From Promethearchaeota archaeon (GTDB lineage: Archaea; Asgardarchaeota; Thorarchaeia; Thorarchaeales; Thorarchaeaceae): a stretch of 13,197 bases of DNA. The stretch covers positions 1 to 13,197 of the forward strand of contig JALVPN010000111.1 in NCBI GenBank assembly GCA_027031765.1. Reading direction: 5' to 3'. The translations under genes were made by a program, and so were the position numbers. The notes under the pieces were generated by a model. That model was given only the letters and a program-made list of their open reading frames with translations, had not been told where the DNA came from and did not search any database. The first letter of the stretch is position 1. Every line of letters begins with the position of its first letter. Shown here in pieces: positions 644-13,197 of this stretch.

Positions 644-774
644 ATGGCCACTGGGCCTGTACAGGCCATACAATATTGAATAAGAGATGAGGGGTGGACC
701 ACACCCGGCCCACCACGACACTATGTGCCGACTGTGCTGACTGAACTCCCTACTGGCGCCCGCCTCTCCACGGA

Positions 775-1647
775 CTAGCCGATGCGAGTGCCACAGTTTG
801 GACAGAAGCGTGCCCCGTTGAGCTTGGTACCGCAGTTGGGACAGTACTTTGCACCCGCCGGAGCTGCGCCACCCTGCTGTCCTCCAGTTGCAGCAGCCAC
901 TGCGCCCATGAAGCCAATGCCTGCACCAAAGCCAGCGCCCGGGCTCCGCCCGAGGGCCTCGGCGGTGTCCTTCATGGTCTCCATACCAGCGAGCTGAGCG
1001 CCGCCAACGCCACCAGTCCTGAGCCAGAAGAGCCGCTCCCTGTACTTCTCTGTGGTGTCAATCCCTTCAAACTTCAGGTCGACGAGCTCGAGGCCCAGCC
1101 TCTCAAAGGCCATCCGAACCTTCGTCTTGACCTTCATGGAGGTCTCGTCGAGCTGTGTGAACACCGTCTGAAGGTCGTAGTGTGCAAACTCGTCTATGAT
1201 GCGTTCGTTCATGAACGAACGGAGGTATTCGTTGACCCTCTTCGTTGTGAACGCGTTCTGGTTCCCTACGACGTCCTGTACAAAGATGTTGGGCTCTGCG
1301 ACCCGGAACCAGAAGTTGCCGTGGAACATCAGTGGCGCGAGATCGCTTGTTTGGCCCCGTCCTCCGAACTTGCCCTGGAACTGCGAGCGCGAAACGAACA
1401 CACACGTCGCCTCGAAGACGTCGCCCTTGACCTTTCTCTGGAGCCAACCAACGAGGCCAGGCATGCTACTGGTAGTCAGTTTGTGGCGGCCCGCAGTGAA
1501 CTTGTCCAGTGCCTTGCCATCGCGGTAGAAGATGGCCCACTGGTTCTCCATCACAATCAGCTGGGAGCCCCACTTGATCCTGTTGTCAGGATAACGCCAC
1601 ACAATCTGATCCGGTGCAGCGTTAGTCCACTCGATTGCATCTGCCAT
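775..1647 (-). CDS. SPFH/band-7 (stomatin/prohibitin-like) domain protein with a Gly-rich linker and C-terminal double zinc ribbon (COG4260-like architecture)
   Basis: Translation from the ATG at 1645-1647 gives 'MADAIEWTNAAPDQIVWRYPDNRIKWGSQLIVMENQWAIFYRDGKALDKF...', matching my recollection of the N-terminus of SPFH/Zn-ribbon proteins. The C-terminus is 'GAGFGAGIGFMGAVAAATGG...KYCPNCGTKLNGARFCPNCGTRIG', a Gly-rich linker plus two CPNCG knuckles. The first 50 codons of the six-frame ORF (1648-1797) are Cys/Trp/Pro/Arg-rich and look like an upstream read-through, so I place the start at 1647. Confidence 0.7.
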   Translation of the reverse strand: MADAIEWTNAAPDQIVWRYPDNRIKWGSQLIVMENQWAIFYRDGKALDKFTAGRHKLTTSSMPGLVGWLQRKVKGDVFEATCVFVSRSQFQGKFGGRGQTSDLAPLMFHGNFWFRVAEPNIFVQDVVGNQNAFTTKRVNEYLRSFMNERIIDEFAHYDLQTVFTQLDETSMKVKTKVRMAFERLGLELVDLKFEGIDTTEKYRERLFWLRTGGVGGAQLAGMETMKDTAEALGRSPGAGFGAGIGFMGAVAAATGGQQGGAAPAGAKYCPNCGTKLNGARFCPNCGTRIG

Positions 1648-1696
1648 GCTGAGTACACCTTGATACTCGAAGTCCTGAGCTCTTAGGGCAGATATC

Positions 1697-1708
1697 CGTT
1701 TTAAACAT
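1697..1708. promoter_or_regulatory. TTTAAA TATA-box-like element in the divergent intergenic region
   Basis: 'cgttttaaacat' is an AT island in GC-rich DNA, ~50 bp upstream of the minus-strand SPFH start at 1647. It is palindromic, so it could serve either strand. Confidence 0.3.
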
Positions 1709-1912
1709 TGATGTGTTGTTCCCGATAGGCCTGACAGACAGTCCATGGGCCAAGGGACACGTCCCCGGGGCACAGAACATTGGGTGCGTCCGGCCACAGT
1801 GTGTACCAGAGGGGTCGGTTGGACAGCACCACGGCCTGCAGCAGGTCGCCAGAGTGTGCGCCTAAGGCCGGAGTTATTAGTGCGGCGTGTAAGTCAGCAC
1901 AGGAGGTATTTG

Positions 1913-2359
1913 ATGCCGCACCAACAGGAAGGCGAAGGGCCTGAGATCAGCCCTGAGGAGCCGCGTGTCGTGCGGAGACCGTTCAACCCAATGGCCACCT
2001 ACGTCCAGATGGTCGTCCTCATAATAGTCGGCTACGGACTGCTGAGTATCTTTGGGTATCCAGTCCTCATAATGGCCATGCTCGTCGTCATCATCATGCT
2101 CGTCAGGGAAACACTGTACGTCCTTGCCCACCTGCCATTCCGGTTTGTTACTGCAGCAGCCTACGCAAACATGGCGTACTCAGCAGTCGGCTTCGTGACT
2201 CTTGTCGTAAACGCATTTGCAATCACCCAGACCGGGCAGCCCGCAATATTGCCCGAAGTCCCCAGTCTAACGCTCATCTGTCCACTGTTCATCATGGCTG
2301 CCCTTCTTGGTACCGTGAACCTCCGCAAGATGTTCGAGCCAGTGTCACAGGAGAGGTAG
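1913..2359 (+). CDS. small integral membrane protein (148 aa, ~4 predicted TM helices), function unknown
   Basis: The ATG at 1913 is preceded by a strong Shine-Dalgarno-like 'AGGAGGT' at 1901-1907 and an AT-rich 'gagttattagtg' (1870-1881) TATA-like box. The protein 'MPHQQEGEGPEISPEE...MATYVQMVVLIIVGYGLLSIFGYPVLIMAMLVVIIMLV...' has a hydrophilic N-terminus followed by long hydrophobic stretches. The six-frame ORF start at 1745 overlaps the divergent SPFH gene and is unlikely to be the real start. Confidence 0.55.
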   Translation: MPHQQEGEGPEISPEEPRVVRRPFNPMATYVQMVVLIIVGYGLLSIFGYPVLIMAMLVVIIMLVRETLYVLAHLPFRFVTAAAYANMAYSAVGFVTLVVNAFAITQTGQPAILPEVPSLTLICPLFIMAALLGTVNLRKMFEPVSQER

Positions 2360-2419
2360 GTCACATGTCGGATGCCCCGTCGGGTGTATGTGGAAGAGGA
2401 CACCACAGACCGGCAGGAC

Positions 2420-3175
2420 TCACACACTGACCCGCATGAGGTCTTCGCCAAGGACAGCCCGGACCCCGGTGTCGCCACTCACAGTCGAGAGGACATCGTC
2501 CTTGGAGGCAACGACCTCTGGTGACACGTGTACGAGGACCACCGTCCCGGGGCTGGCCTCGCGCACGACCTCTGCGAGCTCGCTCGGACTCGTGTGTACA
2601 CCTGTGGGCGAGTGGCCGTCCAACCAGTTGCACTCGTGAACTAGGACATCGCAGCCCCGGGCCAGCTCGACCACCTCCGGACACGGTGCCGTGTCGGACG
2701 TGTACACGACCGACCGGCCATCAAGTTCGACCCTGAAGGCACGTGCGTCCATTGGGCCATGCAGTGTCTTGCAGGTTCTGACGGTGAGCGGGTCGAGCCT
2801 GGTCTCGGACACCTCGTCCAGTGGTACCGGTCGTAGCGGGAACTTGGACTGGAGGTACGTGAACGCCGAGTCGAACATCAACCCGGTCCACTCCATCAGC
2901 TGCAGCGGACCATAGACGCACAACTCGTCCGTACGTCCTGCAAGCCACATGCTCTGGTACAGGGTCATGAAGTCCGAGCAGTGGTCGATGTGGAAGTGAC
3001 TGATGAACACAGCGTCGAGTGAAGTCAGGTCTGTGCCGAGCTGTGTGAGCCGGTGTAGCACACCCGAGCCGATATCGAGGAGGACCGAACGGCCAGCGCC
3101 CTGCACCAGGACACCAGACTGGACACGACGGGGGTCTGGGACTGAGGTGCCAGTGCCCAGTAGTGTGATCTCCAT
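2420..3175 (-). CDS. MBL-fold metallo-hydrolase, RNase Z (ElaC)-like, short form lacking most of the flexible-arm/exosite
   Basis: The sequence 'MEITLLGTGTSVPDPRRVQSGVLVQ..RSVLLDIGSGV', 'AVFISHFHIDHCSDF' (HxHxDH metal motif), 'DELCVYGP', 'SVVYTSDTAPCPEVVELARGCDVLVHEC' and 'HTSPSELAEVV...VVLVHVSP' aligns block by block with bacterial RNase Z as I recall it. It is ~40 aa shorter between the 'VYGP' and 'SDT' blocks. The ATG at 3173-3175 is the likely start; an in-frame GTG at 3184 would add 3 aa. Confidence 0.7.
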   Translation of the reverse strand: MEITLLGTGTSVPDPRRVQSGVLVQGAGRSVLLDIGSGVLHRLTQLGTDLTSLDAVFISHFHIDHCSDFMTLYQSMWLAGRTDELCVYGPLQLMEWTGLMFDSAFTYLQSKFPLRPVPLDEVSETRLDPLTVRTCKTLHGPMDARAFRVELDGRSVVYTSDTAPCPEVVELARGCDVLVHECNWLDGHSPTGVHTSPSELAEVVREASPGTVVLVHVSPEVVASKDDVLSTVSGDTGVRAVLGEDLMRVSV

Positions 3176-3211
3176 GTCAATCACGGCCAGACTGTGCGGT
3201 GGTCGTAATCA

Positions 3212-4327
3212 GTGTTCTGGCTGCCGGACACAGCACCAGACAAAATTGAAGTGGTGTGGTGTGCCACGTCTGGTGTGACACGAGCTAGAGAGAAGACCAC
3301 CAGTCATGTCGTCATAATAGATACCGGGTCGGCCCTCACAAAGGCCTGTGTTGCAGGCAGCAGGCCCCTGCAGGCGGCAGTTCTCCGGACGGGAGATGTC
3401 GTGGGCACACCCACAGATGTAGTCCGTGACCAGCACATTGGTAGTGTTGACGCAGTGGCCCGGTTGTGGGGACATGTCATCCGTGTAGGACTGGGCCTCG
3501 ACCCCACGAGTACAGAAGTGGTGGTGAGTGGGCCCGCAGACCCGACCAACGACGATGCGGAGAGGACCGCGGAGGTGCTGTTCGAGGTGCTCGGTGTCAG
3601 GGCGGGCGTGATGGTACAGCGTCCCCTGCTCGCCCTATGGCGACGCCGTACTCTCGAGGGACTCGTAGTGGATGCAGGACACGACAGCACGAGGGGGTGG
3701 CCGGTAGTGGAGGGGCACGTCATCCTTGCCGAGGCGTTCACATACCCTGTTGGTGGGAGGGGCATCGAAGCATACCTGTGCACCCTGCTCAGACAGATGG
3801 GATACACTGTGCCCAAGGACCTGTCGATGGAGGATGTGCGCAGGATGAAGGAGGAGCTGTGCACAGTGCGGCTCACGGGTGCGGAGGGCCCGAAGTACAC
3901 GACCACCGGACAGGACGCATTCACAACTCCCGAGGGCCTTGAGGTCGACCTTGGGCCCATCACCGAGTGTGCGGCCGAACCACTATTCGACCCCGCGGTG
4001 CTCGGCATTGATGAGAGGCCACTTGGAGAGATGGTAGCGGGAGTCATAGGACAGGACAGGGACTTCCTGCTGAAAATCGCGACCACGCGTAACATAGTCG
4101 TGACCGGCGGGATGTCGCTCCTGCCGGGTTACGTTGAACGACTCCGTCATGAGACACGACAGCGTGTAGGGGATGACGTCGAGTTCAAGATGAGGGGGAG
4201 TGAGGACGCGACCATGGACACCTGCATGGGTGGGTACATCTTCGGCACGCTACGTACTACACGCAAGCTGTTGGTCACCAAGGAGCGCCTACGCACAGAG
4301 GGCGCATGGCAACTGTGTCCACTCTAG
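3212..4327 (+). CDS. actin-family ATPase (archaeal actin homologue) that is collinear with eukaryotic actin
   Basis: The translation aligns with eukaryotic actin along nearly its whole length. Each pair below gives our sequence first, then the actin segment:
- 'VVIIDTGSALTKACVAGSRPLQAAV' with '[26 protein letters not shown]' (phosphate-1)
- 'VVVSGPADPTNDDAERTAEVLFEVLGVRAGVMVQRPLLALWRRRTLEGLVVDAGHDSTRGWPVVEGHVILAEAFTYPVGGRGIEAYLCTLLRQMGY' with '[96 protein letters not shown]', at identical spacing
- 'MEDVRRMKEELCTV' with 'REIVRDIKEKLCYV'
- 'ITECAAEPLFDPAVLG' with 'ERFRCPEALFQPSFLG'
- 'NIVVTGGMSLLPGYVERLRHE' with '[21 protein letters not shown]'
- 'GGYIFGTL' with 'GGSILASL'.
About 40 residues of the subdomain-2 D-loop are absent. 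The six-frame start is a GTG at 3212. An in-frame GTG at 3275, ~27 bp downstream of an AT island 'caaaattgaa' (3241-3250), would give a leaderless transcript with the DTGS motif at residue ~15 as in actin. The start is therefore uncertain between 3212 and 3275. Stop is TAG at 4325-4327. Confidence 0.8.
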   Translation: MFWLPDTAPDKIEVVWCATSGVTRAREKTTSHVVIIDTGSALTKACVAGSRPLQAAVLRTGDVVGTPTDVVRDQHIGSVDAVARLWGHVIRVGLGLDPTSTEVVVSGPADPTNDDAERTAEVLFEVLGVRAGVMVQRPLLALWRRRTLEGLVVDAGHDSTRGWPVVEGHVILAEAFTYPVGGRGIEAYLCTLLRQMGYTVPKDLSMEDVRRMKEELCTVRLTGAEGPKYTTTGQDAFTTPEGLEVDLGPITECAAEPLFDPAVLGIDERPLGEMVAGVIGQDRDFLLKIATTRNIVVTGGMSLLPGYVERLRHETRQRVGDDVEFKMRGSEDATMDTCMGGYIFGTLRTTRKLLVTKERLRTEGAWQLCPL

Positions 4328-4608
4328 GAGTCGTGGGATAACAGCACATGGCGCACGGTGTTGACGAGCAGTCGCAGCTCTCGTACAACACGCTCCTTGT
4401 TGCCATTGGGAAACGCCAGTTGACTGATGATGTCCTTGCACGTCACATCACGCACAACGCGCAGCATCGCCATAGAGTCGACGGCAATCCGTCCCGCGTC
4501 CACCTCCCTACATAGGGCCTCGATGTGTTGCGCGAGCACCTGGCCATGGGAGGTGACCACGGTTGTGTCCGCACCCTTTGTAAGGTCGTCAATCAGGCGG
4601 CCTGCCAT
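4324..4608 (-). CDS. Roadblock/LC7 (MglB-like) domain protein, ~94 aa. This is tentative, and the start is uncertain.
   Basis: Translation from the ATG at 4606-4608 is 'MAGRLIDDLTKGADTTVVTSHGQVLAQHIEA...AVDSMAMLRVVRDVTCKDIISQLAFPNGNKERVVRELRLLVNTVRHVLLSHDS'. Size and pattern fit the Roadblock fold: an N-terminal helix, then G-x-x-x-V-V-x-x-x-G-x-V-L, then 'RVVRDV' (Robl has 'ARSTVRDI'). The six-frame ORF extends to a TTG at 4830, but that N-terminal extension is Cys/His/Arg-rich with weaker third-position GC, so I prefer the ATG. The stop TAG at 4324-4326 overlaps the actin stop. Confidence 0.45.
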   Translation of the reverse strand: MAGRLIDDLTKGADTTVVTSHGQVLAQHIEALCREVDAGRIAVDSMAMLRVVRDVTCKDIISQLAFPNGNKERVVRELRLLVNTVRHVLLSHDS

Positions 4609-4816
4609 CGCTTGCAGGTCTGTTAGAAAAGTCTGTGGCTCCACTGGCGCGCGGTGGCTATTATCAGCATACAGACGGTCGTCGTACACCCGGCACACCA
4701 AGTTGTGCCTGTGTCGGCGGTATTTATTCTGTACGATTACTGAAACGGTGTGCTGAGCAAACCGGACTGTCCAGTCCGAGGCTGCTCTCGCATGGCATTT
4801 GACAGGGCAGAAGAGC

Positions 4817-5176
4817 TCACTGTTCGGCAAGCCTAGGACGCAACAACTGTTCCATTGTGGTCAAGAACAGGCGCAGCTGCTTCCGGGCACGCTCAAGGGC
4901 ATCAGGGCCCTGCCTACAGAGTTCGGGGAGCTCTGATACGGCGAACTCGTACATCAGGGGAATCATCGTGTGCATTTCGACACGGATCTTGCCCGCCCTG
5001 TAGACATCCATAGCACGGTCGACCGCATTGGCAAAGTCAGCCACCCTCAACTCGACCTCCGGGCAGGAGGGGTCACTCAAGAGCAGGTCATGCAGGACGG
5101 TGCATGTCCTCACGACTCTATCAAGGGGGTCGTCCGTCTGCGCTGTCGGCTGCCGGTCTCCGTCATCCGCGGTCAT
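4817..5176 (-). CDS. hypothetical protein (120 aa; acidic N-terminus, helical C-terminus), likely co-transcribed with the Roadblock-like gene
   Basis: Translation from the ATG at 5174-5176 is 'MTADDGDRQPTAQTDDPLDRVVRTCTVLHDLL...ERARKQLRLFLTTMEQLLRPRLAEQ'. Third positions are ~80% G/C. Stop is TGA at 4817-4819. The upstream 60 codons of the six-frame ORF are Cys/Trp/Pro-rich and are probably leader. I see no P-loop or other recognisable motif. Confidence 0.45.
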   Translation of the reverse strand: MTADDGDRQPTAQTDDPLDRVVRTCTVLHDLLLSDPSCPEVELRVADFANAVDRAMDVYRAGKIRVEMHTMIPLMYEFAVSELPELCRQGPDALERARKQLRLFLTTMEQLLRPRLAEQ

Positions 5177-5354
5177 GTCAGCTCGCACCTCTGTACCACA
5201 CGGCCATGTCAGACAGGTCTTCGTGCATGTGCATATAACTAGAGCTTTGTCCTGCCGGCAACCCATGAGGGCGGGTGGTGACATGTCACCAAGTGCCCCC
5301 TTGGTCGGACTGACCGGGCGAGACCATTCCTGATGTGGACGGCGCACTGGACAC

Positions 5355-5392
5355 ATCGTATATATGATTCCTACAGTGCACTTTATTGCATG
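5355..5392 (+). promoter_or_regulatory. AT-rich promoter region with TATA-like boxes ('tatatatg', 'ctttattgc') upstream of the surface-protein gene
   Basis: 'cgtatatatgattcctacagtgcactttattgcatg' is the most AT-rich island in the 245-bp divergent intergenic region. 'TTTATT' lies ~33 bp upstream of the TTG start at 5422. Confidence 0.3.
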
Positions 5393-5421
5393 TGGGCAAC
5401 TAGTATGTTGGTGATGTCTTC

Positions 5422-6900
5422 TTGCATGACACTACAAGGACTGCAGTAGCCATAGGACTCGTTGTAGCGCTTGCCGTCCAGTTCCTCGCACTACCAGCCC
5501 AGGTGACCGCCTATACTCCCGGCGACGAGGCGGCGGTGTTCGGACACACCTTTGACGAGGAGTACTGGACGAACGACTCAATCATAGTGCAGACGAAGTA
5601 TGGCAACGCGAGTTTCACGGCGTCCTACGTGCACGTGGACACCTTCTCATCGTTCCTAGTCGCGTTCAACCGCATAGTGACGAACGGCAGTAAGGAGATC
5701 ATGCTCCCGTACCAGCTGTTCGGGATGCACTACCTGACACCGGGACAGGAGGAGGTGTTCATTGGGGCGGTATTCGCGTTCCTCATGGTGCACAATGAGA
5801 CATATGGGAACAACAGCCTGCCAGATGTTGGTCACGAGGCGTCATGGTTCGTGATACCCATGTCGACTGGGAACCCATGGCCTGATGTGACACCACAGGT
5901 CGAGGCCATCCCAGCTGAGAAGCTCGGGGATGGACACTACAGGTTCGGCATGAGGTACATCGACATGCCCGCGCGTGTCGTGGCCACAAACAGTACAGGT
6001 GGTTTCATAGCGTCGCTCCTGCTCCCAATCCTCACCGTCCTGGTCAGCGAGATCAGGATTGAGTACGACATAAGGATAGACAATGCTACAGGCGAGGTGC
6101 GTGCCGAGACCCTGTACACGATTGGCCAGGTCGAACGTGCTAGACTGCTCGGCGTGGGGGCGGTGGAGCCCTCGGACATAATCAACGAACAGATGGAAAT
6201 CAGTGCGGTACACTACCTCTCAGTGTTCACCAGCAAGTACACTGTGGCAAACGCAACGTCCGGACAGACGCTAGTCCCGCCCACAAGGACTCAGCCTCTC
6301 AACAACAACATCACAGTCCGTGTGGGTGATGACAGCGAGCGGGCACTGGATGTGGGCCTGGGCCGGGAGTACTCGCTGTACAACGAGAGCACAGACCCGT
6401 GGACGCTGGTCTCAGACAACGAAACCGCACTCAACTCGTTGCTCGCCGCGAAGAAGAAGGACTTCGTCCTGATTGCATGGCAGGCACCACTCTCCGCGTT
6501 CATCTTGGCCCACATGGCATACGGCCTCTCTAGTACAATCAGGGAGCGCTATCCCACCGTACAGGCCCTCGTCAACAACGCCACCAATGAGTTCCACTCC
6601 AGCCAGTGGTGGTATGCCGTGACCTTCCCCAAGTGGAACGGCCTACGTGTCCAGCAGGACCCGTCCTATGTGGCACACACGGATCTCGCTGAGACCACGA
6701 CCACTACCACCACCACATCATCAACAACATCATCAACCACCACCACCACATCATCAACAACAACTACCACCACTACCAGTACGAACGGCACGACAACACC
6801 CGGTGCACCATCACCGGTCAGGACGGGGCCGATACTCGTAGTGGCAGGCATTGTTGGCGTCATTGTGATAGTAGTGGTGGTCATGAAGAGAAGACACTAG
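5422..6900 (+). CDS. secreted, heavily N-glycosylatable cell-surface protein with a Thr/Ser-rich stalk and C-terminal transmembrane anchor (S-layer-like or surface glycoprotein)
   Basis: The N-terminus 'MHDTTRTAVAIGLVVALAVQFLALPAQVTA|YTPGD' looks like a signal peptide. There are 13 N-x-S/T sequons (NDS, NAS, NGS, NET, NNS, NST, NAT, NAT, NIT, NES, NET, NAT, NGT). The C-terminus 'TTTTTTTSSTTSSTTTTTSSTTTTTTTSTNGTTTPGAPSPVRTGPILVVAGIVGVIVIVVVVMKRRH' is a stalk, a TM helix and a basic tail, with no PGF motif. The only in-frame start after the upstream TAG is the TTG at 5422. Stop is TAG at 6898-6900. Confidence 0.75.
   Translation: MHDTTRTAVAIGLVVALAVQFLALPAQVTAYTPGDEAAVFGHTFDEEYWTNDSIIVQTKYGNASFTASYVHVDTFSSFLVAFNRIVTNGSKEIMLPYQLFGMHYLTPGQEEVFIGAVFAFLMVHNETYGNNSLPDVGHEASWFVIPMSTGNPWPDVTPQVEAIPAEKLGDGHYRFGMRYIDMPARVVATNSTGGFIASLLLPILTVLVSEIRIEYDIRIDNATGEVRAETLYTIGQVERARLLGVGAVEPSDIINEQMEISAVHYLSVFTSKYTVANATSGQTLVPPTRTQPLNNNITVRVGDDSERALDVGLGREYSLYNESTDPWTLVSDNETALNSLLAAKKKDFVLIAWQAPLSAFILAHMAYGLSSTIRERYPTVQALVNNATNEFHSSQWWYAVTFPKWNGLRVQQDPSYVAHTDLAETTTTTTTTSSTTSSTTTTTSSTTTTTTTSTNGTTTPGAPSPVRTGPILVVAGIVGVIVIVVVVMKRRH
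6694..6780 (+). repeat. coding low-complexity tandem repeat (ACC/ACA/TCA codon repeats; unit ~'CCACCACATCATCAACAACA' x2) encoding the Thr/Ser stalk
   Basis: 'accacgaccactaccaccaccacatcatcaacaacatcatcaaccaccaccaccacatcatcaacaacaactaccaccactacc' is directly visible within the CDS. Confidence 0.6.
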
Positions 6901-6910
6901 CACAGAGGAT

Positions 6911-6958
6911 GTGGCCCGGCCGACGCACAGAGGCCTGGCCACCTGCCTTCTTTTTTCC
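6911..6958 (+). terminator. hairpin plus T-run terminator downstream of the surface-protein gene
   Basis: 'gtggcccggcc' (6911-6921) pairs with 'ggcctggccac' (6932-6942) as a 10-bp stem with one mismatch and a 10-nt loop. It is followed by 'ttcttttttcc' (6948-6958) and begins 11 nt after the TAG stop. Confidence 0.5.
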
Positions 6959-7251
6959 GACAGCCTGACAGTGCCTCACCAGTTGCGAGCCCGTCCACAC
7001 GGTTCAGACTGCTGTGTACTGCTGTAGCACGCTGAGTGGCTGTGTGACTCGGTGGGTGAAGGAACCGACAGGTCTGCAACACGACCAGAAGACCACAACA
7101 TACGGACGGCAGCATGCAGCCCTGGTCGATGAAGGTACCTCCGGTGCAGCTCCTGTGGAAAAACGTCACCGGGTGGTGTCATGGGGCACCACAGCGTACT
7201 GTCAGACAGCAGTACCTGCAAGATGGGCTAGCAACTGCCACTCTACTGCTT

Positions 7252-7287
7252 GGGAAAAATAGTGGGGGCAGTAGGGACGACCCCCAC
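7252..7287 (-). terminator. hairpin plus T-run terminator downstream of the 186-aa gene
   Basis: The minus strand reads 5'-GTGGGGG-tcgtccctactg-CCCCCAC-TATTTTTCCC-3'. In plus coordinates the stem arms are 7281-7287 and 7262-7268, and the T-run is 7252-7261. This is a perfect 7-bp GC stem starting 19 nt after the TAG stop (7306-7308). Confidence 0.55.
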
Positions 7288-7305
7288 CTGCGACGCAAGC
7301 GAGGG

Positions 7306-7866
7306 CTAGTCCTGATAGCCCTTCATGTACCCCTCGCGCTGCTTCCACTTCTCTTCGAGGCGCTGCATGATCTGCCACATGCGGTACGTGTACTCCCATG
7401 CCTTGTCAAACTTGCCTTGGTTCATCTCATCGAGGAACTCCTCAACGACATCATTGATGTTACCGATGTCCTCGATTATTGTGGCGTCGAACTCGTATAC
7501 ACGGTCGAGCTCCTTCTCGTCAATCTTCTCCTTGGAGCCCCACGCTGCATAGCCGTAGTCGGCGTAACGGATGGCCCGCACGAGCTTGTCGGTCAGTGCG
7601 AGCATGCGGTCGAAAGTGTCCCAGACCTTTGTCAGGTTGTAGTCGACCACCATCATCTGTAGCTTCTCCAGGTCCTGCTGCACGAGCCGGAGCTGGTCTG
7701 CCAGGAACTCACGGAGGACCTTGTCTGCGGCGCGGCGCTCCTCCTTCGACTGATACCCATGCCAACCAGGGATGTAGTGCGTAATCAGCCCAAAGAACCC
7801 GCCCTTGACGTCCTTTGCGGCCTTTTTCCTAATCCTCTTTGCAATCGGGTCAGTGACCTTACCCAT
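7306..7866 (-). CDS. hypothetical protein (186 aa; basic N-terminus 'MGKVTDPIAKRIRKKAAKDVKGGFFGLI', Trp/Tyr-rich helical body)
   Basis: Start is ATG at 7864-7866 and stop is TAG at 7306-7308. GC3 bias is strong. A SD-like 'GGAGAC' lies ~10 nt upstream, and a TATA-like 'TTTTTAAG' (plus 7941-7948) lies ~75 bp upstream. The antisense ORF 7114..7662 is Leu-rich and artefactual. I recognise no family. Confidence 0.65.
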   Translation of the reverse strand: MGKVTDPIAKRIRKKAAKDVKGGFFGLITHYIPGWHGYQSKEERRAADKVLREFLADQLRLVQQDLEKLQMMVVDYNLTKVWDTFDRMLALTDKLVRAIRYADYGYAAWGSKEKIDEKELDRVYEFDATIIEDIGNINDVVEEFLDEMNQGKFDKAWEYTYRMWQIMQRLEEKWKQREGYMKGYQD

Positions 7867-7968
7867 ATGTCATTGTCTCCTGACTATCTGTGCAACCCAC
7901 ATAGCGTGGAGTGGGTTGACCCGCCATCCTGTACTCACTTTTGCTTAAAAAGAATCTCACGCGATACA

Positions 7969-8048
7969 CCCCACACACCACACACCACACACACCACACA
8001 CCACACACACCACACACACCACACCACACACCACACACCACACACACC
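7969..8048. repeat. degenerate microsatellite CCA(CA)1-3, 10 units ('ccacaca'/'ccacacaca'/'ccaca'), CA/TG alternating
   Basis: Read directly as 'ccacaca ccacaca ccacacaca ccacaca ccacacaca ccacacaca ccaca ccacaca ccacaca ccacacaca cc'. It is intergenic, lying ~100-180 bp upstream of the 186-aa gene start and ~200 bp downstream of the MAT stop. Confidence 0.9.
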
Positions 8049-8252
8049 TGACACCTGATAGGGGCGACCGTACACTGAGAGCCCGAGCGGCTGCGCGGGG
8101 ACAGGAGCCGTGGACGCGCCGGGTAGGGGCACTGTCAGGTGGGAAACGGCTGCTCCCCCGCAGCGGGACGTGCCTGACAGGCATATGGGGGAGCAGACAA
8201 CCCACGGTGGAGGGAGAGGGATGGGGAGGGCAGTGTCGCCCTCGTCCTGTGC

Positions 8253-9446
8253 TCACCACAGCTGGTACTCTCTCTTGACAAACCCCTTCCAGACCGTCGG
8301 GAGTTTGGCAATGACCTCTTCGGCTATGCTCTCCACGGAGCTGGACATCTGCTCGACATTACAGTCCCCGAACACCTCGATGTTGACTGTCTTGGGCTCA
8401 GTGATGGGCGCCCCGATCTGGCTGACGAGGTAGCAGTAGACCTGGTCTATGTCCGGGTGCTCCTCGGCAATGCGATGGACAATCTCGCGGGCGGCAACGT
8501 TGTAGGTCTTACCCACATGTGAAACAGGGTTCTTGCCCGCTGCGGCCTCTAGTGTCATTGGTCTGTAGGGGGTTATCAGGCCGTTTGCACGGTTGCCACG
8601 CCCGACCTGGCCGTCGTCGCCGTGCTCAGCAGATGTGCCCGTGACAGTGAGGTAGAAGAGGCCCTCATCCGGCCGGTCCGCGGTGTTGACGCTGACCTCA
8701 ACGTTCAGGTCTGTCAGCCTCACCGCCAAGTCCGACACCATCTCCCGGATGCCGTCCATGACGCTCTGGTACTCGTCAGCGTCCCGGGTCTCGGTGGAGA
8801 TGATTGCAGCTGCAATCTGGATGTGCAGGTCGTCACCGACCCGGGTACCCATGACCTTGATGTCCTCACCAATCTGCGGCCACTGGGTCTTGATACGGTC
8901 GCTGTTGAGGAGGAGCTCGGTCTCCAGGACGACCTTCTCGGTGGGTGAGAGAGGGGCATAGCCGACACCGAAGCTGGTGTCGTTCGCGCGGGGAATCTCC
9001 ACATCGCCCTCGAAGTTGCCAACAAGGTCTGTGCTACCGGCCCGGATACGGTAGTCGATGATGATGTCCGAGTTCGCATCAAGGTGGGGCAGGTCATGGT
9101 GCAGCCACGACCTGGTGTGCTCTACTGCGAACTTGCCGACGGGCACCTGGCGTTCATAGTCCTTGTCCACAACATCGACGGCGCGCCCGCTCAGGAGCAG
9201 GTAGATCGGCTCGATGACGTCCCCGCCACCAAACCTGACGTTCGACTGTCCGCCCACAAGCAGGACCTTGTCCACGTTGTGGTGCATCACCCGTCCGAAT
9301 GATTCGAGGTAGTACTCGCTCAGGCGGATGGACAGTTCCTCGGCTGCCTTGTCACACAGGGTATCGGGATGGCCCTTGCCCTTGCGCTCAACAATTTCCA
9401 CATTCCGTTTGTGTACCGGGGGCCCTGCTACATGACCAGGGGCCAC
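8253..9446 (-). CDS. mat: S-adenosylmethionine synthetase, archaeal type (methionine adenosyltransferase, EC 2.5.1.6)
   Basis: 'EIVERKGKGHPDTLCDKAAEELS', 'HHNVDKVLLVGGQSNVRFGGGDVIEPIYLLLSGRAV', 'ANDTSFGVGYAPLSPTEKVVLETE', 'GEDIKVMGTR', 'FYLTVTGTSAEHGDDGQVGRGNRANGLITPYRPMTLEAAAGKNPVSHVGKTYNVAAREI' are nearly block-identical to Methanocaldococcus and Thermococcus MAT as I recall them. Start is GTG at 9444-9446 with no in-frame ATG nearby, and the AT-rich 'gtaattac' box ~27 bp upstream is consistent with a leaderless mRNA. Stop is 8253-8255. Confidence 0.92.
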   Translation of the reverse strand: MAPGHVAGPPVHKRNVEIVERKGKGHPDTLCDKAAEELSIRLSEYYLESFGRVMHHNVDKVLLVGGQSNVRFGGGDVIEPIYLLLSGRAVDVVDKDYERQVPVGKFAVEHTRSWLHHDLPHLDANSDIIIDYRIRAGSTDLVGNFEGDVEIPRANDTSFGVGYAPLSPTEKVVLETELLLNSDRIKTQWPQIGEDIKVMGTRVGDDLHIQIAAAIISTETRDADEYQSVMDGIREMVSDLAVRLTDLNVEVSVNTADRPDEGLFYLTVTGTSAEHGDDGQVGRGNRANGLITPYRPMTLEAAAGKNPVSHVGKTYNVAAREIVHRIAEEHPDIDQVYCYLVSQIGAPITEPKTVNIEVFGDCNVEQMSSSVESIAEEVIAKLPTVWKGFVKREYQLW

Positions 9447-9523
9447 CGGTGTCCTTATATACCTTCCCGTATGTAATTACCTACAGTAAACGTCTATTAC
9501 TAATGGTAATTGCCGGTGTGAGA
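9447..9523. promoter_or_regulatory. shared divergent promoter/operator region between mat and the HTH-CBS gene
   Basis: This is an AT island in GC-rich DNA, 'ccttatatacc...atgtaattacctacagtaaacgtctattactaatggtaattgcc'. It carries TATA-like 'TTATATA' (9455-9461), an 8-bp perfect palindrome 'GTAATTAC' (9473-9480), and an imperfect inverted partner 'GGTAATTGC' (9505-9513) 23 bp away. Confidence 0.4.
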
Positions 9524-10072
9524 ATGATATCAGTCGAAGAGATCAGGAGGCTCAGACGGAACGCGGGCATGAGCCAGGCCGACCTTGCTGCAGAGGTAGG
9601 GGTCTCACAGTCATACATTGCGCGGATGGAGGGCGGCACCCTGGACCCAAAGCTGTCGGTGGTGAACGCCATCCTAGAGGTGGTCTACGGGCGTCGGGGT
9701 AGGACATGTGCTGAGATAATGACGCCAGACCCCGAGACCGTGGACGCCCGCCAGACAGTAGCAGTAGCAATCGCAAAGATGCGGGCCGGGGACTACTCGC
9801 AACTGCCAGTTGTCAGGGGGCTCAGGGTTGTGGGGTGCATCACCCTTGCCGACATCGTGAACAACATGGACCACGACCTTACAGAGATGGCAGTGGAGAC
9901 CATCATGGACCCGAGGGGGGTGCCCGTGGTAAACGAAGAGACCCCTATCAACGACGTGCTACCCCTCTTCAAGAGCTATCAGGCAGTAGTGGTCCTCAGA
10001 CACGGCCGCGTGAGCGGCATCATCACGGTCTACGACCTGCTCAAGCTCCTGTTGCCGCACTCGCTGATGTGA
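9524..10072 (+). CDS. transcriptional regulator: N-terminal HTH (XRE-type) domain fused to a CBS-domain pair
   Basis: Translation from the ATG at 9524 is 'MISVEEIRRLRRNAGMSQADLAAEVGVSQSYIARMEGG', a classic XRE helix-turn-helix. Two CBS motifs follow: 'AEIMTPDPETVDARQTVAVAIAKMRAGDYSQLPVVRGLRVVGCITLADIV' and 'VETIMDPRGVPVVNEETPINDVLPLFKSYQAVVVLRHGRVSGIITVYDLLKLL'. The six-frame start at 9299 overlaps mat and is implausible; the ATG at 9503 is an alternative. Stop is TGA at 10070-10072. Confidence 0.75.
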   Translation: MISVEEIRRLRRNAGMSQADLAAEVGVSQSYIARMEGGTLDPKLSVVNAILEVVYGRRGRTCAEIMTPDPETVDARQTVAVAIAKMRAGDYSQLPVVRGLRVVGCITLADIVNNMDHDLTEMAVETIMDPRGVPVVNEETPINDVLPLFKSYQAVVVLRHGRVSGIITVYDLLKLLLPHSLM

Positions 10073-10117
10073 GGGGACACGTCCTGCAGGCATGCTGTCC
10101 GAGGAGGGGCGCGCAGA

Positions 10118-10132
10118 ATAAGTTATAAGATA
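10118..10132 (+). promoter_or_regulatory. TATA-like box 'aagttataagata' upstream of the 218-aa gene
   Basis: An AT-rich island ~35-45 bp upstream of the TTG start at 10165. Confidence 0.3.
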
Positions 10133-10164
10133 TCCAGTGAATGAAGGGACTGGAGCAATGAGAC

Positions 10165-10821
10165 TTGTCGCGCGAGATAGACCTTCTTGAGGAGCTCAGG
10201 GACGGCATTGACACGTTTGTCGAGCGCTGGGCAAAGATCCAGCGCAACTCGGTAAAGTCAATACAGGCCGTGACGAACACCATTGTACAGATAGAGCACC
10301 TTGATGGCCCGCTGGGCAACCTGGAGGACTTCCAGAACATCCGGGAGAACACGCGTGGCAAGCTATTGGTCCACCTCTTCGACAAGCTTGTCCCGGCCCT
10401 GGAGACCTCCATCAAGGAGTTCACCAAACTCATGTCGATGTTTGCAGCCTTGAAACAGAAGGTGACAACACTACAGACCTTTACAGAGTCGCTCAGGGGC
10501 AGCATCCACGAGAGACCGGATCTGGAGGACCTGGTCGGGTTCCTCGACGTAATCTTGATGAGCATCAGAGAGGTCCTCGCGATGTTCGAGTCCGAGTTCC
10601 TGGTGAAGATCACGATATTCAGGGACCTTGAGGAGGGGACCATTGACATCGGGGTCGTGAGCAACTACCTGACCGTCTGGACCGCGGAACCAAACATAGA
10701 GCACATCCTCATGGAGAAACTCCTGAAAGATGTGGACGAGCACATGGAAGCCGTCCGTGACGTCTTTGAGGGGAAGACCGGGGTGCGCCTGCCGGACATG
10801 TACAGGAAGGTGTCGTACTGA
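10165..10821 (+). CDS. hypothetical all-alpha protein (218 aa)
   Basis: The TTG at 10165 is the only start codon available, one codon after an in-frame TGA. The sequence 'MSREIDLLEELRDGIDTFVERWAKIQRNSVKSIQ...' is helical, with strong GC3 bias. The antisense ORFs 10041..10664 and 10471..10989 are Ser/Arg/Pro-rich artefacts. I recognise no family. Confidence 0.6.
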   Translation: MSREIDLLEELRDGIDTFVERWAKIQRNSVKSIQAVTNTIVQIEHLDGPLGNLEDFQNIRENTRGKLLVHLFDKLVPALETSIKEFTKLMSMFAALKQKVTTLQTFTESLRGSIHERPDLEDLVGFLDVILMSIREVLAMFESEFLVKITIFRDLEEGTIDIGVVSNYLTVWTAEPNIEHILMEKLLKDVDEHMEAVRDVFEGKTGVRLPDMYRKVSY

Positions 10822-10995
10822 GGCCACACCGGGACGGGCCGGGTGATGGGGCACGCCGGAAAGACTGTGGGCCAGACCATGACTACAGCGTTGTGACGTG
10901 GGAGGGAGTGCAGGAGGGGTGCACCACGCAGGCCGGGCGCATAGTGGCAACACACCCCCGTCAGGCCCGACAGCAGACATACTAGGCATAACACA

Positions 10996-12597
10996 CTACA
11001 TCAGCTGACCGCTCTCACACATCCGGATGCGGTTCTGTATCTCTTCGATCTCTGCCTCTAGCTCGCTCCGTCGTTCTTCGTACATGCTCTCAGATATACG
11101 CCCACGTTCGTACTCCTGCTGGTAGAACTCGAGCCGCTTTCGGAGCAACGTCTCACGTACACTGAGCTCTTCAATCCGGGCACGCTTCTCAGCGACTATC
11201 CGTCTGAGCTCGTCCTCCAGCCGGAAGATCTCCTCTTCGAGCTCGGCCTTCAGACGTGTGTAGAGTGACGGCTCGACCTTGCCCTCAGTGTAGAGGTCTA
11301 CCAGGTGGAGGAGGGCCTGTCGAGTTGCATCACGGTGAGCGGTGACCTCCCTTGCAACGTCCTCCCTCTCGACGAGGCCGAGCTTCTTTGCAAGGAAGGG
11401 TGTTGAGAGGCCCTGTACCACGAGGCTCACTACAAGCACTATGAAGACGATGGCGTTGATTGTCTGGCCCATCAGTACGTGACCGGTGACCTCGTACTCG
11501 GTGATTATTGATACGGAGATGGCTGCAAGGGCAGCACTGGCCACGCCCTTCACGCCAGCCCAACTCAGGAAGAAGCGGTCTTTGAACGACATTGTCCTGT
11601 CAGCGGCCGTCACGATGAAGACTGACGCGGGGCGTGCCACAAGGATGACGAGGGCCGCGATGACGAGGCCCAGCACCACCACGCTGCTGTTTGAGAGGAG
11701 GAACTGCGTGTCGAGCGTGTACCCCAACAACACGAAGATGGCAATCTCAAAGGCGAAGGAGACGTTGCGCATCACACCACGCATGGAACGCTGAGGGAGT
11801 ACGTCAAGGCCGACCGTCTTCGAGTTCGCCATGAATATGCCGGCGAAGACCGCAGCAAGGGCACCGGGGTGGAGACCGAGGACTGCGAACACCTCGCCGA
11901 CACCATACGCGAGGATGGGTGTGGTGGCGGTCAGGATTGCGACGTTGGTGTCAGTGCCAGTCTTGAGGAGGGTCATGCCAAGGGCATAGGCCACACCAAG
12001 GCCAATGAGCACGCCCAGTGCAACACTGGCAAAGAACTCGATGAACACCATTGGCCAGGGGCGTGAGAGCTGGGGCACCACCATTGGCTCGAAGACCGTG
12101 ATGACCAGGATGACCGCGGTGGCGTCGTTGAACACGGCCTCACCCTCCAGTATTGAGAACAGTTTGCGCTTCACACGCACGCCACCCGACTCGAGGACTG
12201 AGAACAGGGCGGCCGGGTCTGTGGGCGAGAGGACTGCACCGATGAGGAACGCCGTGACGCCGATGGTGGAGAACAGGAATATCGCCGTACCTGCTATGAG
12301 CGACGTGAGGACGACACCGAGAGTGGCCAGCAGGAGCACCGAGGAGATTGACATGCGGAGCTCCCTGACGTTCATGGTCAGGCCAGCGTAGAAGAGGACG
12401 GCGGCAAGGGTCAACTGGCCCAGGAAGTCGACACCCACCATTGAGAAGAGGTCGCCGGCAGGGAACACACCGCCGAGGATGATGCCAGCCAGTATCAGGG
12501 GTAGTGGGTACGGGAGCCTGTGCTCCTCAGCAAGCTTTGCGAGGGCAGCCCCACCAATCAGGATGGCTGCGACAAGGAACAGTCCCTCGGTGGCCAC
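10996..12597 (-). CDS. nhaP: Na+/H+ antiporter, NhaP/CPA1 type, with a ~120-aa C-terminal coiled-coil cytoplasmic tail
   Basis: It has ~11-12 hydrophobic segments. The sequence carries the CPA1 signatures 'AVLSPTDPAALFSVLESGG' (TDP) and 'EGEAVFNDATAVIL' (E-x-x-x-NDA). The tail 'EEEIFRLEDELRRIVAEKRARIEELSVRETLLRKRLEFYQQEYERGRISESMYEERRSELEAEIEEIQNRIRM' shows heptad-rich coiled coil. Start is GTG at 12595-12597, preceded by 'GAGGTG' 6 nt upstream. Stop is TAG at 10996-10998. Confidence 0.85.
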   Translation of the reverse strand: MATEGLFLVAAILIGGAALAKLAEEHRLPYPLPLILAGIILGGVFPAGDLFSMVGVDFLGQLTLAAVLFYAGLTMNVRELRMSISSVLLLATLGVVLTSLIAGTAIFLFSTIGVTAFLIGAVLSPTDPAALFSVLESGGVRVKRKLFSILEGEAVFNDATAVILVITVFEPMVVPQLSRPWPMVFIEFFASVALGVLIGLGVAYALGMTLLKTGTDTNVAILTATTPILAYGVGEVFAVLGLHPGALAAVFAGIFMANSKTVGLDVLPQRSMRGVMRNVSFAFEIAIFVLLGYTLDTQFLLSNSSVVVLGLVIAALVILVARPASVFIVTAADRTMSFKDRFFLSWAGVKGVASAALAAISVSIITEYEVTGHVLMGQTINAIVFIVLVVSLVVQGLSTPFLAKKLGLVEREDVAREVTAHRDATRQALLHLVDLYTEGKVEPSLYTRLKAELEEEIFRLEDELRRIVAEKRARIEELSVRETLLRKRLEFYQQEYERGRISESMYEERRSELEAEIEEIQNRIRMCESGQLM

Positions 12598-12608
12598 ACG
12601 CAGACACC

Positions 12609-13197
12609 TCAGATCTCAGCAACGATTTCGGCGCACTCCTTCAGGTAGTCAGAGATGTGCTCCAGTTCGCGCACAATCTTCCGGAGGATGTAGCAGATGA
12701 AGTCGGACTCGCCCTCAGTGGCGACAGAGATCTGCCGACAGATGACTATGTTGTCCTCGTCAATCTCCCGTTCCAGGCGCATGACCGCCTGCAAGGTGTC
12801 TGCGGCCACCACAGGGTCGTCTTTCCTCTGTTCTGCGAGTTGGCGGAGGGTGGTGAACTGTTCATGCACCTTCGACGTTATCGTGGTGAGAGAGTCCATG
12901 TAGACCTCACCAAAGGACTGTCCGTGCACCATGTCGACCATGAGCAGGACATGGGCCAGGGTGCACTGGATTTTCAGCAGGTAGGACGAGGCGGCCTGTG
13001 CAGCAATGCCGAGGCCATCACGGGGCAGGCTCTGCGAGAACTCATACATTGAGACCCGGCCCGAGAGGTGTCTGGCCACCTTTCCCCGGAGGCGCTCCCA
13101 GTCCTGTTCATCAGGCACACGACTGCTCGTCAGCCTCTCCTCGAGGATTGCAGTGATCTTCTCCTGGCGGTCCAGTATCCTGCACAGCGATGTGAGG
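12609..13197 (-). CDS. PhoU-like domain protein. It is 5'-partial: the frame stays open to the window end.
   Basis: The C-terminus 'REIDEDNIVICRQISVATEGESDFICYILRKIVRELEHISDYLKECAEIVAEI' fits the PhoU repeat pattern (E-I-D...i-c-r-q-i...L-E-h-I-s-D-y-x-x-x-I-A-E, compare 'LERIGDHATNIAE'). An earlier 'YLLKIQCTLAHVLLMVD' is a plausible first repeat. The minus-strand frame is open from 13118 (a GTG the ORF finder used) up to 13197, so the true start is outside the window. The TGA stop at 12609-12611 lies 11 nt upstream of the nhaP GTG start. Confidence 0.5.
   Translation of the reverse strand, partial: LTSLCRILDRQEKITAILEERLTSSRVPDEQDWERLRGKVARHLSGRVSMYEFSQSLPRDGLGIAAQAASSYLLKIQCTLAHVLLMVDMVHGQSFGEVYMDSLTTITSKVHEQFTTLRQLAEQRKDDPVVAADTLQAVMRLEREIDEDNIVICRQISVATEGESDFICYILRKIVRELEHISDYLKECAEIVAEI

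Follow-up and report, generated by a model that had tools for sequence, protein, structure and literature searches.

A helix-turn-helix-CBS protein encoded divergently from the S-adenosylmethionine synthetase gene of a thorarchaeon is a candidate regulator of methionine and S-adenosylmethionine genes

Introduction

How do archaea adjust their production of S-adenosylmethionine (SAM) to demand? This question is raised by a locus in a 13,197-nucleotide stretch of DNA, referred to here as the window, from a Promethearchaeota archaeon of the family Thorarchaeaceae (assembly GCA_027031765.1, contig JALVPN010000111.1, positions 1 to 13,197). In this locus mat, encoding an archaeal-type methionine adenosyltransferase (MAT; SAM synthetase), is divergent from a gene for a 182-amino-acid protein in which a helix-turn-helix (HTH) domain is joined to a pair of CBS domains. 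The regulation of methionine and SAM metabolism is largely undescribed in archaea, and archaea are without MetJ. A preliminary description of the window, made from the sequence, proposed that the HTH-CBS protein senses SAM, ATP or methionine and controls both mat and its own gene from a shared control region. Comparative analyses of this locus, its relatives and the wider protein family are described here and indicate that the 182-amino-acid protein is very probably the local (Thorarchaeota-clade) member of a family of archaeal transcription factors with a methionine/SAM regulon.

Results

The gene identities and divergent layout given in the preliminary description were confirmed by Pfam and NCBIfam searches (Table 1). 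The mat product matched PF01941 over residues 8 to 392 (E = 1e-152; 509 bits relative to a cutoff of 27) and NF003366 at 498.6 bits (cutoff, 435). This full-length match above the curated cutoff places it among the archaeal-type methionine adenosyltransferases (PF01941), and it was 76 to 83% identical to the MAT proteins of Thorarchaeota-type metagenome-assembled genomes (MAGs). The 182-amino-acid protein matched CBS (PF00571; 77 bits in two stretches), HTH_31 (48.9 bits; cutoff, 27) and HTH_3 (41.7 bits; cutoff, 23), with the XRE/Cro-type HTH placed by Pfam at residues 6 to 53. An AlphaFold 2 (AF2) model of this protein (pLDDT, 86.7) contained four N-terminal helices (residues 4 to 13, 18 to 25, 29 to 37 and 44 to 58), a long linker helix and a Bateman module, and Foldseek comparisons gave template modeling (TM) scores of 0.8 to solved CBS pairs over ∼120 residues. 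Alignment with the N-termini of 21 homologues agreed with ATG 9524 as the start codon of the regulator and ruled out starts at 9299, 9449 and 9503, indicating that database gene calls of 207 and 234 residues and a 257-residue open reading frame (ORF) are over-extensions. Within positions 9299 to 10072 the public calls (207 and 234 residues) span the whole control region and one of them runs into mat, due to the absence of an in-frame stop codon from the spacer.

TABLE 1 Positions of the gene pair, its control elements and the adjacent conserved gene in the window
Feature	Position	Strand	Remarks
mat, archaeal-type methionine adenosyltransferase (SAM synthetase)	8253..9446	-	Longest ORF, from GTG 9446; true start uncertain
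Shared control region, 77 bp	9447..9523	.	Between the mat and regulator starts
TATA box, TATATAAG on the mat strand	9454..9461	-	Conserved CTTATATAM/CATAAATAG box in relatives
Weak dyad CTTCCCGTATGTAAT (2 mismatches)	9463..9477	.	Overlaps the spacer/BRE
Operator dyad 1 ATTACCTACAGTAAA (1 mismatch)	9476..9490	.	14 nt from the TATA box; PWM score 12.5
Operator dyad 2 ATTACTAATGGTAAT (perfect)	9496..9510	.	Starts 28 nt upstream of the regulator ATG; PWM score 21.3
HTH_3 plus CBS-pair protein, 182 aa, predicted transcription factor	9524..10072	+	Pfam, AF2, alignment
Recognition-helix segment G26-V-S-Q-S-Y-I-A-R34	9599..9625	+	Invariant or almost invariant among Thor-clade members
CBS pair (CBS1, ~aa 63-114; CBS2, ~aa 121-176), presumed adenosyl-ligand sensor	9710..10051	+	
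Conserved 218-aa neighbour	10165..10821	+	Near the regulator in 49/49 loci with room; no dyad upstream

Asgard loci were collected by searching with the regulator, one genome being retained per species. In 50 of these 51 loci mat was adjacent, upstream and divergent, the single exception having only 196 bp of upstream sequence before being cut by the contig end. Two further loci, on contigs labelled Hodarchaeota and Sifarchaeia, exhibited the same layout and the same dyads (see below). When metagenome loci were instead found with MAT, the regulator was present in all 26 that had a Thor-type MAT (≥75% identity) and enough upstream room, and none of those with a MAT of 57 to 68% identity carried it. 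The synteny of HTH-CBS genes with mat that had been suggested as a check was thus strongly borne out, every relative with enough upstream sequence having kept the divergent pair. The two genes were never separated, while the flanking genes were partly syntenic with insertions and inversions. The link between the regulator and mat is, on this evidence, well supported.

The spacers of the 50 related loci indicated that the real cis unit is a 15-bp dyad, ATTAC-N5-GTAAT, with the fuller form ATTACY-N3-RGTAAT. With up to one mismatch this dyad was found twice in the window compared to 0.07 expected occurrences, and none of 200 shuffled sequences contained two. A weaker third copy resembles ATTCCCATGGGTAAT of one relative (L011), and the same offset from the TATA box is occupied in L004 to L006. 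Both dyads lie in the 77-bp AT-rich control region that had been described as shared by the two genes, and this region stood up to analysis: the spacer was 59.7% AT compared to 41% for the window, whose most AT-rich 77-nucleotide stretch begins at 9454, and it was identical in an independent European Nucleotide Archive (ENA) assembly of the same lineage (L073). The elements previously marked within this region had in part to be redrawn. The perfect palindrome GTAATTAC is present at 9473 to 9480 and neither exceeds chance nor forms a conserved unit, two copies with up to one mismatch being found relative to 1.15 expected and 65 of 200 shuffles reaching two. It was therefore rejected as an operator and corresponds to the overlap of the right half of the weak dyad (9463 to 9477) with the left half of the dyad at 9476 to 9490, a type of junction also seen in L002 and L016. 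Its inverted partner, GTAATTGC, exists at 9506 to 9513 but lies 25 bp away rather than 23, and is the right half of the dyad at 9496 to 9510. TATA-like boxes had been reported for both directions, but a single clear canonical box was found, CTTATATACC at 9454 to 9463, 7 nt from the sole canonical start codon of mat. The adjacent 14-nt spacer (9462 to 9475) contains GGGAAGG, which resembles a transcription factor B (TFB) recognition element (BRE).

Scans of the window for other signals were also performed. In a position weight matrix (PWM) scan of 6 kb on either side, the three best matches outside the spacer were located within ORFs (two matches) or between two convergent genes (one match), and additional regulon members in this interval were rejected on these grounds. 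Rfam searches of the window and of five relatives gave no family at or above the gathering score, and no known riboswitch or other RNA element, SAM riboswitches included, was thus found in these sequences. A scan for sigma-70 promoters and terminators was uninformative for an archaeon.

Dyads were then counted in 51 intergenic regions, comprising those of the 50 related loci and that of the window. A total of 106 dyads with up to two mismatches were detected, distributed over all 51 spacers, compared to 7.0 in shuffled sequences. Perfect dyads numbered 12 in 6 kb of spacer and 0 in 508 kb of flanking sequence, and those with up to one mismatch numbered 62 and 12, respectively, a 421-fold difference in density. 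Base composition did not reproduce this enrichment, AT-rich control windows containing 0.12 dyads per 120 nt compared to 1.9 in the spacers. Successive dyads were spaced by 30 to 32, 19 to 20 or 12 to 13 bp, and the centres of the half-sites were 10 bp apart. This spacing fits a dimeric HTH, as established for repressors of the 434/P22 type. In most loci the last dyad started 22 to 34 nt before the start codon of the regulator (median, 29; 28 in the window). Among Thor-clade members, the identity of residue 30, in the recognition helix (Ser versus Ala or Pro), co-varied with the half-site (GTAAT versus GTTAT; 12/18 versus 3/33; Fisher test, 3e-5, uncorrected for phylogeny). As operator type tracks the type of recognition helix, the dyads were assigned to the HTH-CBS protein.

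Linkage beyond the Thor clade provides the strongest evidence for a role in methionine/SAM metabolism. A scan anchored on MAT detected a second HTH-CBS clade, 31 to 34% identical to the window protein, adjoining archaeal mat in low-GC contigs; the two genes were in tandem in L111, L124 to L126 and L128 to L131 and divergent in L122 and L154. A search with a protein of this clade yielded 903 relatives (E values of up to 1e-10), with source names including Bathyarchaeia, Nitrososphaerota, Thermoprotei, Micrarchaeia and Woesearchaeota. Nine family members, selected solely by the length and label of their contigs, were inspected for gene neighbourhood. One was divergent from archaeal mat, and three were divergent from a gene for an HcyBio+CBS protein followed by one for an NIL-ferredoxin (NIL-Fer4), the two subunits of L-ASST, the homocysteine-forming L-aspartate-semialdehyde sulfurtransferase (PMC12068725). 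Another was located 1.1 kb from a bacterial-type metK, one adjoined a gene of the SAM hydrolase family with MetRS nearby, and for two no methionine/SAM neighbour was seen. The remaining member was divergent from a ThrC-like/MoaD-SAMP/ThiF-MoeB operon, which we take to resemble the MetM/MetO route to homocysteine.

The operators of these more distant members differed in step with their recognition helices. Members with the helix SQSLIAK were associated with a related dyad, TATTCC-N4-RGAATA (TATTCC-N4-GGAATA), of which nine copies with up to one mismatch were detected in 61 kb compared to 0.48 in shuffled sequences. All nine were upstream of a regulator gene, L-ASST, the ThrC-like operon, an operon of a 113-residue ORF plus metK, or the SAM hydrolase gene. 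Thus, SQSYIAR is paired with ATTAC-N5-GTAAT and SQSLIAK with ATTCC-N4-GGAAT, and the gene of a Thermoplasmata member with a Thor-type helix is preceded by ATTACTGAAAGTTAT. Sites were also present at mat loci without an adjacent regulator: all seven of L113 to L119 carried TATTCCTTTAGGAATA-type sites, and L147 and L149 had a perfect ATTACAGACAGTAAT. These comparisons suggest that an archaea-wide HTH_3-CBS family with a recognisable binding site regulates methionine/SAM genes.

Two further observations were made on these loci. The mat upstream regions of the soil/peat lineage L113 to L119 contained additional conserved blocks, GTATTAATGCTGGATTGAC upstream of the dyad and ATATTATCRGCGGGAAAACGATWAAAAAG ∼20 to 60 nt downstream of it, which may represent two promoter elements or a conserved leader. 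In L052 and L054 to L056 (Thermoplasmata; positions ∼5990 to 7480) distant HTH-CBS homologues are followed by genes for CarS (CDP-archaeol synthase) and Pth2 (peptidyl-tRNA hydrolase). Stop and start codons of successive genes overlap in this conserved string of three, which has no evident methionine/SAM link.

The position of the dyad relative to the promoter was a second conserved feature. In every lineage examined, namely the window, the Thor relatives, L147/L149, L113 to L119 and the L-ASST, ThrC-like, metK operon and SAM hydrolase promoters, the dyad was followed after 14 (13 to 15) nt by a TATA box on the target strand. In the window this module comprises the dyad at 9476 to 9490, the spacer at 9462 to 9475 and TATATAAG reading from 9461 to 9454. 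The spacers between dyad and TATA box contained the BRE-like sequences CAGAAA or GAAAAG. Archaeal activators that recruit TFB and the TATA-binding protein (TBP), such as Ptr2, LysM and TFB-RF1, typically occupy such a position, immediately upstream of the BRE.

The 5′ end of mat was less easily placed than its promoter. In the relatives 41 to 45 nt separate the TATA box from the mat ATG, and a Shine-Dalgarno-like GAGTTGAT is present in the leader. In the window, ATG 9433-9431 coincides with the predicted transcription start (∼9431) and follows the TATA box by 20 nt, the distance also found for the apparently leaderless mat ATG of L147, and the first six residues of the mat product are not conserved. 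A leaderless start at ATG 9433, attractive for its distance from the TATA box, was rejected, as a TAG follows directly and the ATG is in frame with the body of MAT in L073 but out of frame in the window. Neither a homopolymer frameshift, which does not rescue this start, nor recoding of TAG as pyrrolysine, with 7 of the 14 genes of the window ending in TAG, was retained as an explanation. The window and L073 differ by a 1-nt indel at ∼9428/9429, and the ATG-TAG is in frame with MAT in the latter. Depending on which of the two sequences is taken, CCCTG-CTACATG at ∼9425 to 9446 or CCCTGCCTACATG at 255 to 290 of L073, the mat ORF either continues without a stop up to GTG 9446 or is interrupted by the TAG. 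The operator and pairing results are unaffected by this uncertainty.

The CBS pair was examined for residues that could indicate its ligand. Both G-h-h-T-x-x-D ribose motifs are present (T107/D110 and T168/D171) and are invariant in the clade; the ribose-binding Asp of this motif is generic to adenosyl-binding CBS domains (PMC4276868). The sequence [YF]-S92-Q93 is also invariant, and a Gln precedes the PV strand in both CBS motifs (Q93 and Q153). SAM-binding CBS pairs are known from archaea, namely those of MJ0100 (PMC4045070, PMC12068725) and of PH1780, a protein responsive to SAM and methylthioadenosine (MTA) (PMC13381585). In a single-sequence PDB search PH1780 ranked second (E = 2.5e-7) and MJ0100 last (E = 0.0098). 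The proposed comparison with SAM binders such as MJ0100 yielded generic CBS similarity without any specific resemblance, and reading the ligand from homology by PDB sequence search, Foldseek or alignment to human CBS likewise gave no more than generic similarity.

Other genes of the window were surveyed for conservation and origin. The GC content of the window was 59% compared to 39 to 55% in its relatives, and the closest homologues of its proteins were labelled Thorarchaeota, Hodarchaeota or Sifarchaeia, indicating an Asgard origin of the Thorarchaeota type. An actin-family ORF of 371 residues (3212 to 4327, plus strand; PF00022, E = 9e-38) fits this origin, and no homologue of it was detected within 6 kb on either side in 50 related loci. 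The 218-residue neighbour downstream of the regulator was preceded by inserts of 0.6 to 3.6 kb in 15 of 49 loci, in 4 of which it was on the opposite strand, and the PWM scan detected no dyad upstream of it. Its product is all-helical, exhibits 64 to 78% identity among homologues and was found only in Thorarchaeota-type MAGs. It had a borderline Pfam match to the C1orf109-like family (26.4 bits; cutoff, 27), and the top PDB matches of its AF2 model were to human CINP/C1orf109 of the 55LCC ribosome-maturation complex, weak matches with E values of 6.6e-3 to 0.1 and TM scores of 0.4 to 0.58; the protein is a possible Asgard homologue of a eukaryotic factor. A 186-residue protein encoded downstream of mat at variable distance (7306 to 7866, minus strand) had no Pfam domain and a weak match to the NCBIfam LIMLP_15305 family, and its 79 to 88% identity in 31 related loci exceeds the conservation of the regulator. 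A 492-residue ORF (5422 to 6900, plus strand) had no Pfam match and no homologue in the related loci. Its product, in which a signal-like segment at the N-terminus is followed by a long stalk rich in Thr and Ser and a hydrophobic anchor at the C-terminus, resembles a surface protein specific to this lineage. A protein combining an SPFH/Band-7 domain with a double zinc ribbon at its C-terminus (775 to 1797, minus strand) also occurred in five related loci.

Discussion

The comparative evidence makes it very likely that the 182-amino-acid protein binds DNA and controls mat. In the proposed mechanism, which as a whole we regard as reasonably probable, a one-component HTH-CBS factor would bind the dyads at 9476 to 9490 and 9496 to 9510 through its XRE-type HTH, presumably as a dimer, and perhaps also the weak dyad at 9463 to 9477, while its CBS pair would sense an adenosyl metabolite. 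Given that the dyad is fixed 14 nt upstream of the TATA box and immediately precedes the BRE, recruitment of TFB/TBP at the mat promoter would be the step on which the bound protein most likely acts. The same dyads are predicted to overlap the core promoter of the regulator gene, since the last of them starts 22 to 34 nt before the start codon, and binding would thus also cause autorepression in the manner of a LysR-type divergent layout. SAM, or its close derivatives S-adenosylhomocysteine (SAH) or MTA, would as effector close a feedback loop on SAM synthesis. We lean, by a narrow measure, towards a ligand of this SAM type, based on the content of the regulon (SAM synthesis, homocysteine synthesis and SAM hydrolysis) and the precedent of archaeal SAM-binding CBS pairs rather than on residues; adenine nucleotides seem a rather unlikely ligand, and the remaining probability falls to other compounds. 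In the preferred model the DNA-bound form would promote mat and shut off its own gene, with the ligand releasing the protein, a direction of control that could equally well prove right or wrong, the alternative being ligand-dependent repression. The broadest version of the proposal is put forward tentatively, as slightly more apt to fail than to hold: that the protein is the Asgard member of an archaea-wide, SAM-responsive master regulator of methionine/SAM genes, with an operator, ATTMC-N4/5-GKAAT, located exactly 14 nt upstream of the TATA boxes of mat, metK, L-ASST and other genes, acting at the BRE/TFB step and repressing its own gene.

Several observations weigh against this proposal. All of the support for binding and for the ligand is comparative. 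Much of the neighbourhood is syntenic in the Thor clade in any case, which weakens pairing within this clade as evidence, and 4 of ∼11 lineage contexts (Micrarchaeia, L160, Thermoplasmata and Archaeoglobaceae) lacked a methionine/SAM neighbour. The TATA box of the window is only 7 nt from GTG 9446, and the predicted transcription start falls inside the mat ORF. With respect to the ligand, the F-D-Q motif of human CBS binds the methionine moiety of SAM, Asp444 holding the methionyl amine and the Gln the carboxylate (PMC4276868); in the window protein the Gln is kept but the Asp444 position is occupied by the invariant Ser92, so that an F-D-Q motif is absent, an equivalence assigned by motif position as the pairwise alignment to human CBS was not significant. 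A PDB profile search ranked MJ1225, of the AMP/ADP/ATP-binding type, first, PH1780 9th and MJ0100 12th, and the Foldseek neighbours of the CBS pair were binders of AMP, ATP or c-di-AMP. The residues of site 2 are conserved throughout the family, including members located beside unrelated genes (CarS/Pth2; Thermoplasmata). Lastly, sequence does not reveal whether regulation is positive or negative, occlusion of the BRE being an alternative to activation.

The last point bears on a reading in which the protein follows MetJ logic: the SAM-bound form would bind the dyads and repress mat and itself, by occlusion of the BRE/TFB site or by cooperative coating, and the apo form would not be an activator. 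Two to four dyads in phase at 20 or 30 to 32 bp fit cooperative repression, a weak dyad overlaps the BRE/spacer in the window and in L004 to L006, the other edge of the dyad abuts a TATA-like ATATAAGG of the regulator gene in compact L-ASST spacers, and co-repression by the end product is the bacterial norm (MetJ; PMC4239095). However, the 14-nt gap is fixed across phyla and leaves the BRE uncovered, as expected of an archaeal activator, while a simple repressor should instead sit on the BRE/TATA or the transcription start. Repression of this kind is doubtful when taken by itself and is nevertheless almost as likely as the preferred activator model. The identity of the ligand opens a different possibility, that the same operators and targets are served by a CBS pair reading adenylate energy charge (ATP/ADP/AMP), which would couple an ATP-consuming enzyme and methionine synthesis to the energy state. 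The ranking of MJ1225, the predominance of AMP/ADP/ATP binders among the structural neighbours (AcuB, CorB/CorC and CBSX), the sharing of the conserved ligand site with members away from methionine/SAM genes and the precedent of the Bacillus repressor CcpN, also an HTH plus CBS protein (PMC7028823), all point in this direction. The targets that recur across phyla are, however, methionine/SAM genes rather than ATP-consuming enzymes in general, and both CBS motifs have a Gln before the PV strand instead of the Arg or Lys common in nucleotide binders, a difference taken as a lead only; sensing of energy charge is thus considered improbable.

Two other readings would remove either mat or the HTH-CBS protein from the circuit. 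The dyads could serve only autoregulation of the HTH-CBS gene, or distant targets, with the adjacency of mat being inherited synteny; in the Thor clade the 218- and 186-residue protein genes and an Na/H exchanger gene are likewise conserved nearby. Yet mat and the regulator are the sole pair never separated among flanks with insertions and inversions. In other lineages family members are again linked to mat, in different gene orders, and also to the non-orthologous metK; mat is preceded by the dyad even at loci where no regulator adjoins it, and the dyad-14-TATA module points toward mat. Inherited synteny is strained by this evidence and is very unlikely to be the explanation. Least probable of all is that the dyads are bound by another transcription factor, the HTH-CBS protein being an unrelated neighbour such as an XRE antitoxin-like protein. 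The HTH does have weak NCBIfam matches to antitoxins of the HipB/MqsA type, but their scores (39.7 and 26.1 bits) fall far short of the respective cutoffs (71.65 and 61.8), and neither neighbour, mat or the gene for the 218-residue helical protein, is a toxin gene; a toxin-antitoxin reading was rejected on both grounds. Moreover, operator type tracks recognition-helix type across clades, and in lineages in which the regulator gene has another neighbour the dyad stays with the regulator gene.

If the preferred reading, control of mat by the HTH-CBS protein through the dyads, is true, a name could be given to a family of transcription factors whose members have to date carried only the annotations 'CBS domain-containing protein' or 'predicted transcriptional regulator'. 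The family would come with a testable operator and a predicted regulon that covers five or more gene families across several phyla, among them the Asgard archaea related to eukaryotes. The conserved dyad-14-nt-TATA geometry would suit studies of the contact of an archaeal factor with TFB/TBP, and the locus would provide a natural protein-DNA sensor of SAM, testable with one 20-kDa protein and 77 bp of DNA. No description of an HTH-CBS regulator of archaeal mat or methionine genes was found in the searchable literature, coverage of which was incomplete, such that prior work is possible; HTH plus CBS proteins of the Thermococcales are mentioned only as uncharacterised (PMC11705074). Metabolite-feedback control itself is known. 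What appears to be new is its probable exercise over methionine/SAM genes by an archaeal protein family not characterised before, together with the operator and the promoter geometry defined here.

The closest parallel in logic is MetJ of Escherichia coli, likewise a protein that exerts feedback on methionine genes, among them the one for SAM synthetase. Autoregulation and the use of repeated short operators are further common features, and SAM, the effector of MetJ, is the one presumed here (PMC4239095, PMC1282579). MetJ, however, is a pure co-repressor restricted to the gamma-proteobacteria, with a ribbon-helix-helix fold and SAM bound in a dimer cleft, whereas the archaeal protein has, by Pfam and AF2, an XRE-type HTH and a CBS pair, and its dyads lie upstream of the BRE; the likeness is one of logic only. 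SAM riboswitches (the S-box and others) resemble the present system in regulon content, metK plus methionine synthesis genes, and in feedback logic, but are RNA elements, while the dyads are double-stranded DNA sites in a promoter. In architecture the nearest systems are CcpN of Bacillus subtilis and EF1025, in which an N-terminal HTH and two CBS domains are combined in ∼200 residues and promoter DNA is bound, as predicted here (PMC7028823). CcpN is bacterial and controls gluconeogenic genes, and its family (NF053704) was absent among the NCBIfam matches of the 182-amino-acid protein at E values of up to 0.01. The modulators of CcpN are reported to be adenine nucleotides and pH.

Among archaeal proteins, MJ0100/MA1821 (L-ASST) and PH1780 contain a Bateman module that senses SAM in the methionine pathway, as is presumed here, but exert allosteric control of enzymes without a DNA-binding domain, and their similarity to the CBS pair of the window is generic (PMC4045070, PMC12068725, PMC13381585). 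L-ASST is itself a neighbour and predicted target of the HTH-CBS family. HhpR of Pyrococcus yayanosii is an archaeal CBS protein acting as an activator from a site upstream of a TATA box, but differs in having four CBS domains without an HTH, in its response to pressure and in its targets (PMC11705074). The layout is that of LysR-type systems, in which a regulator divergent from its target is autorepressed from operators sitting just upstream of the target core promoter; the folds of the LysR-type proteins and of Ptr2, LysM and TFB-RF1 are nevertheless unrelated, and activation by the HTH-CBS protein is suggested by geometry only. The HTH-CBS unit is thus like MetJ and the S-box in logic, like CcpN in architecture and like LysR-type systems in layout, and is a member of none of these groups.

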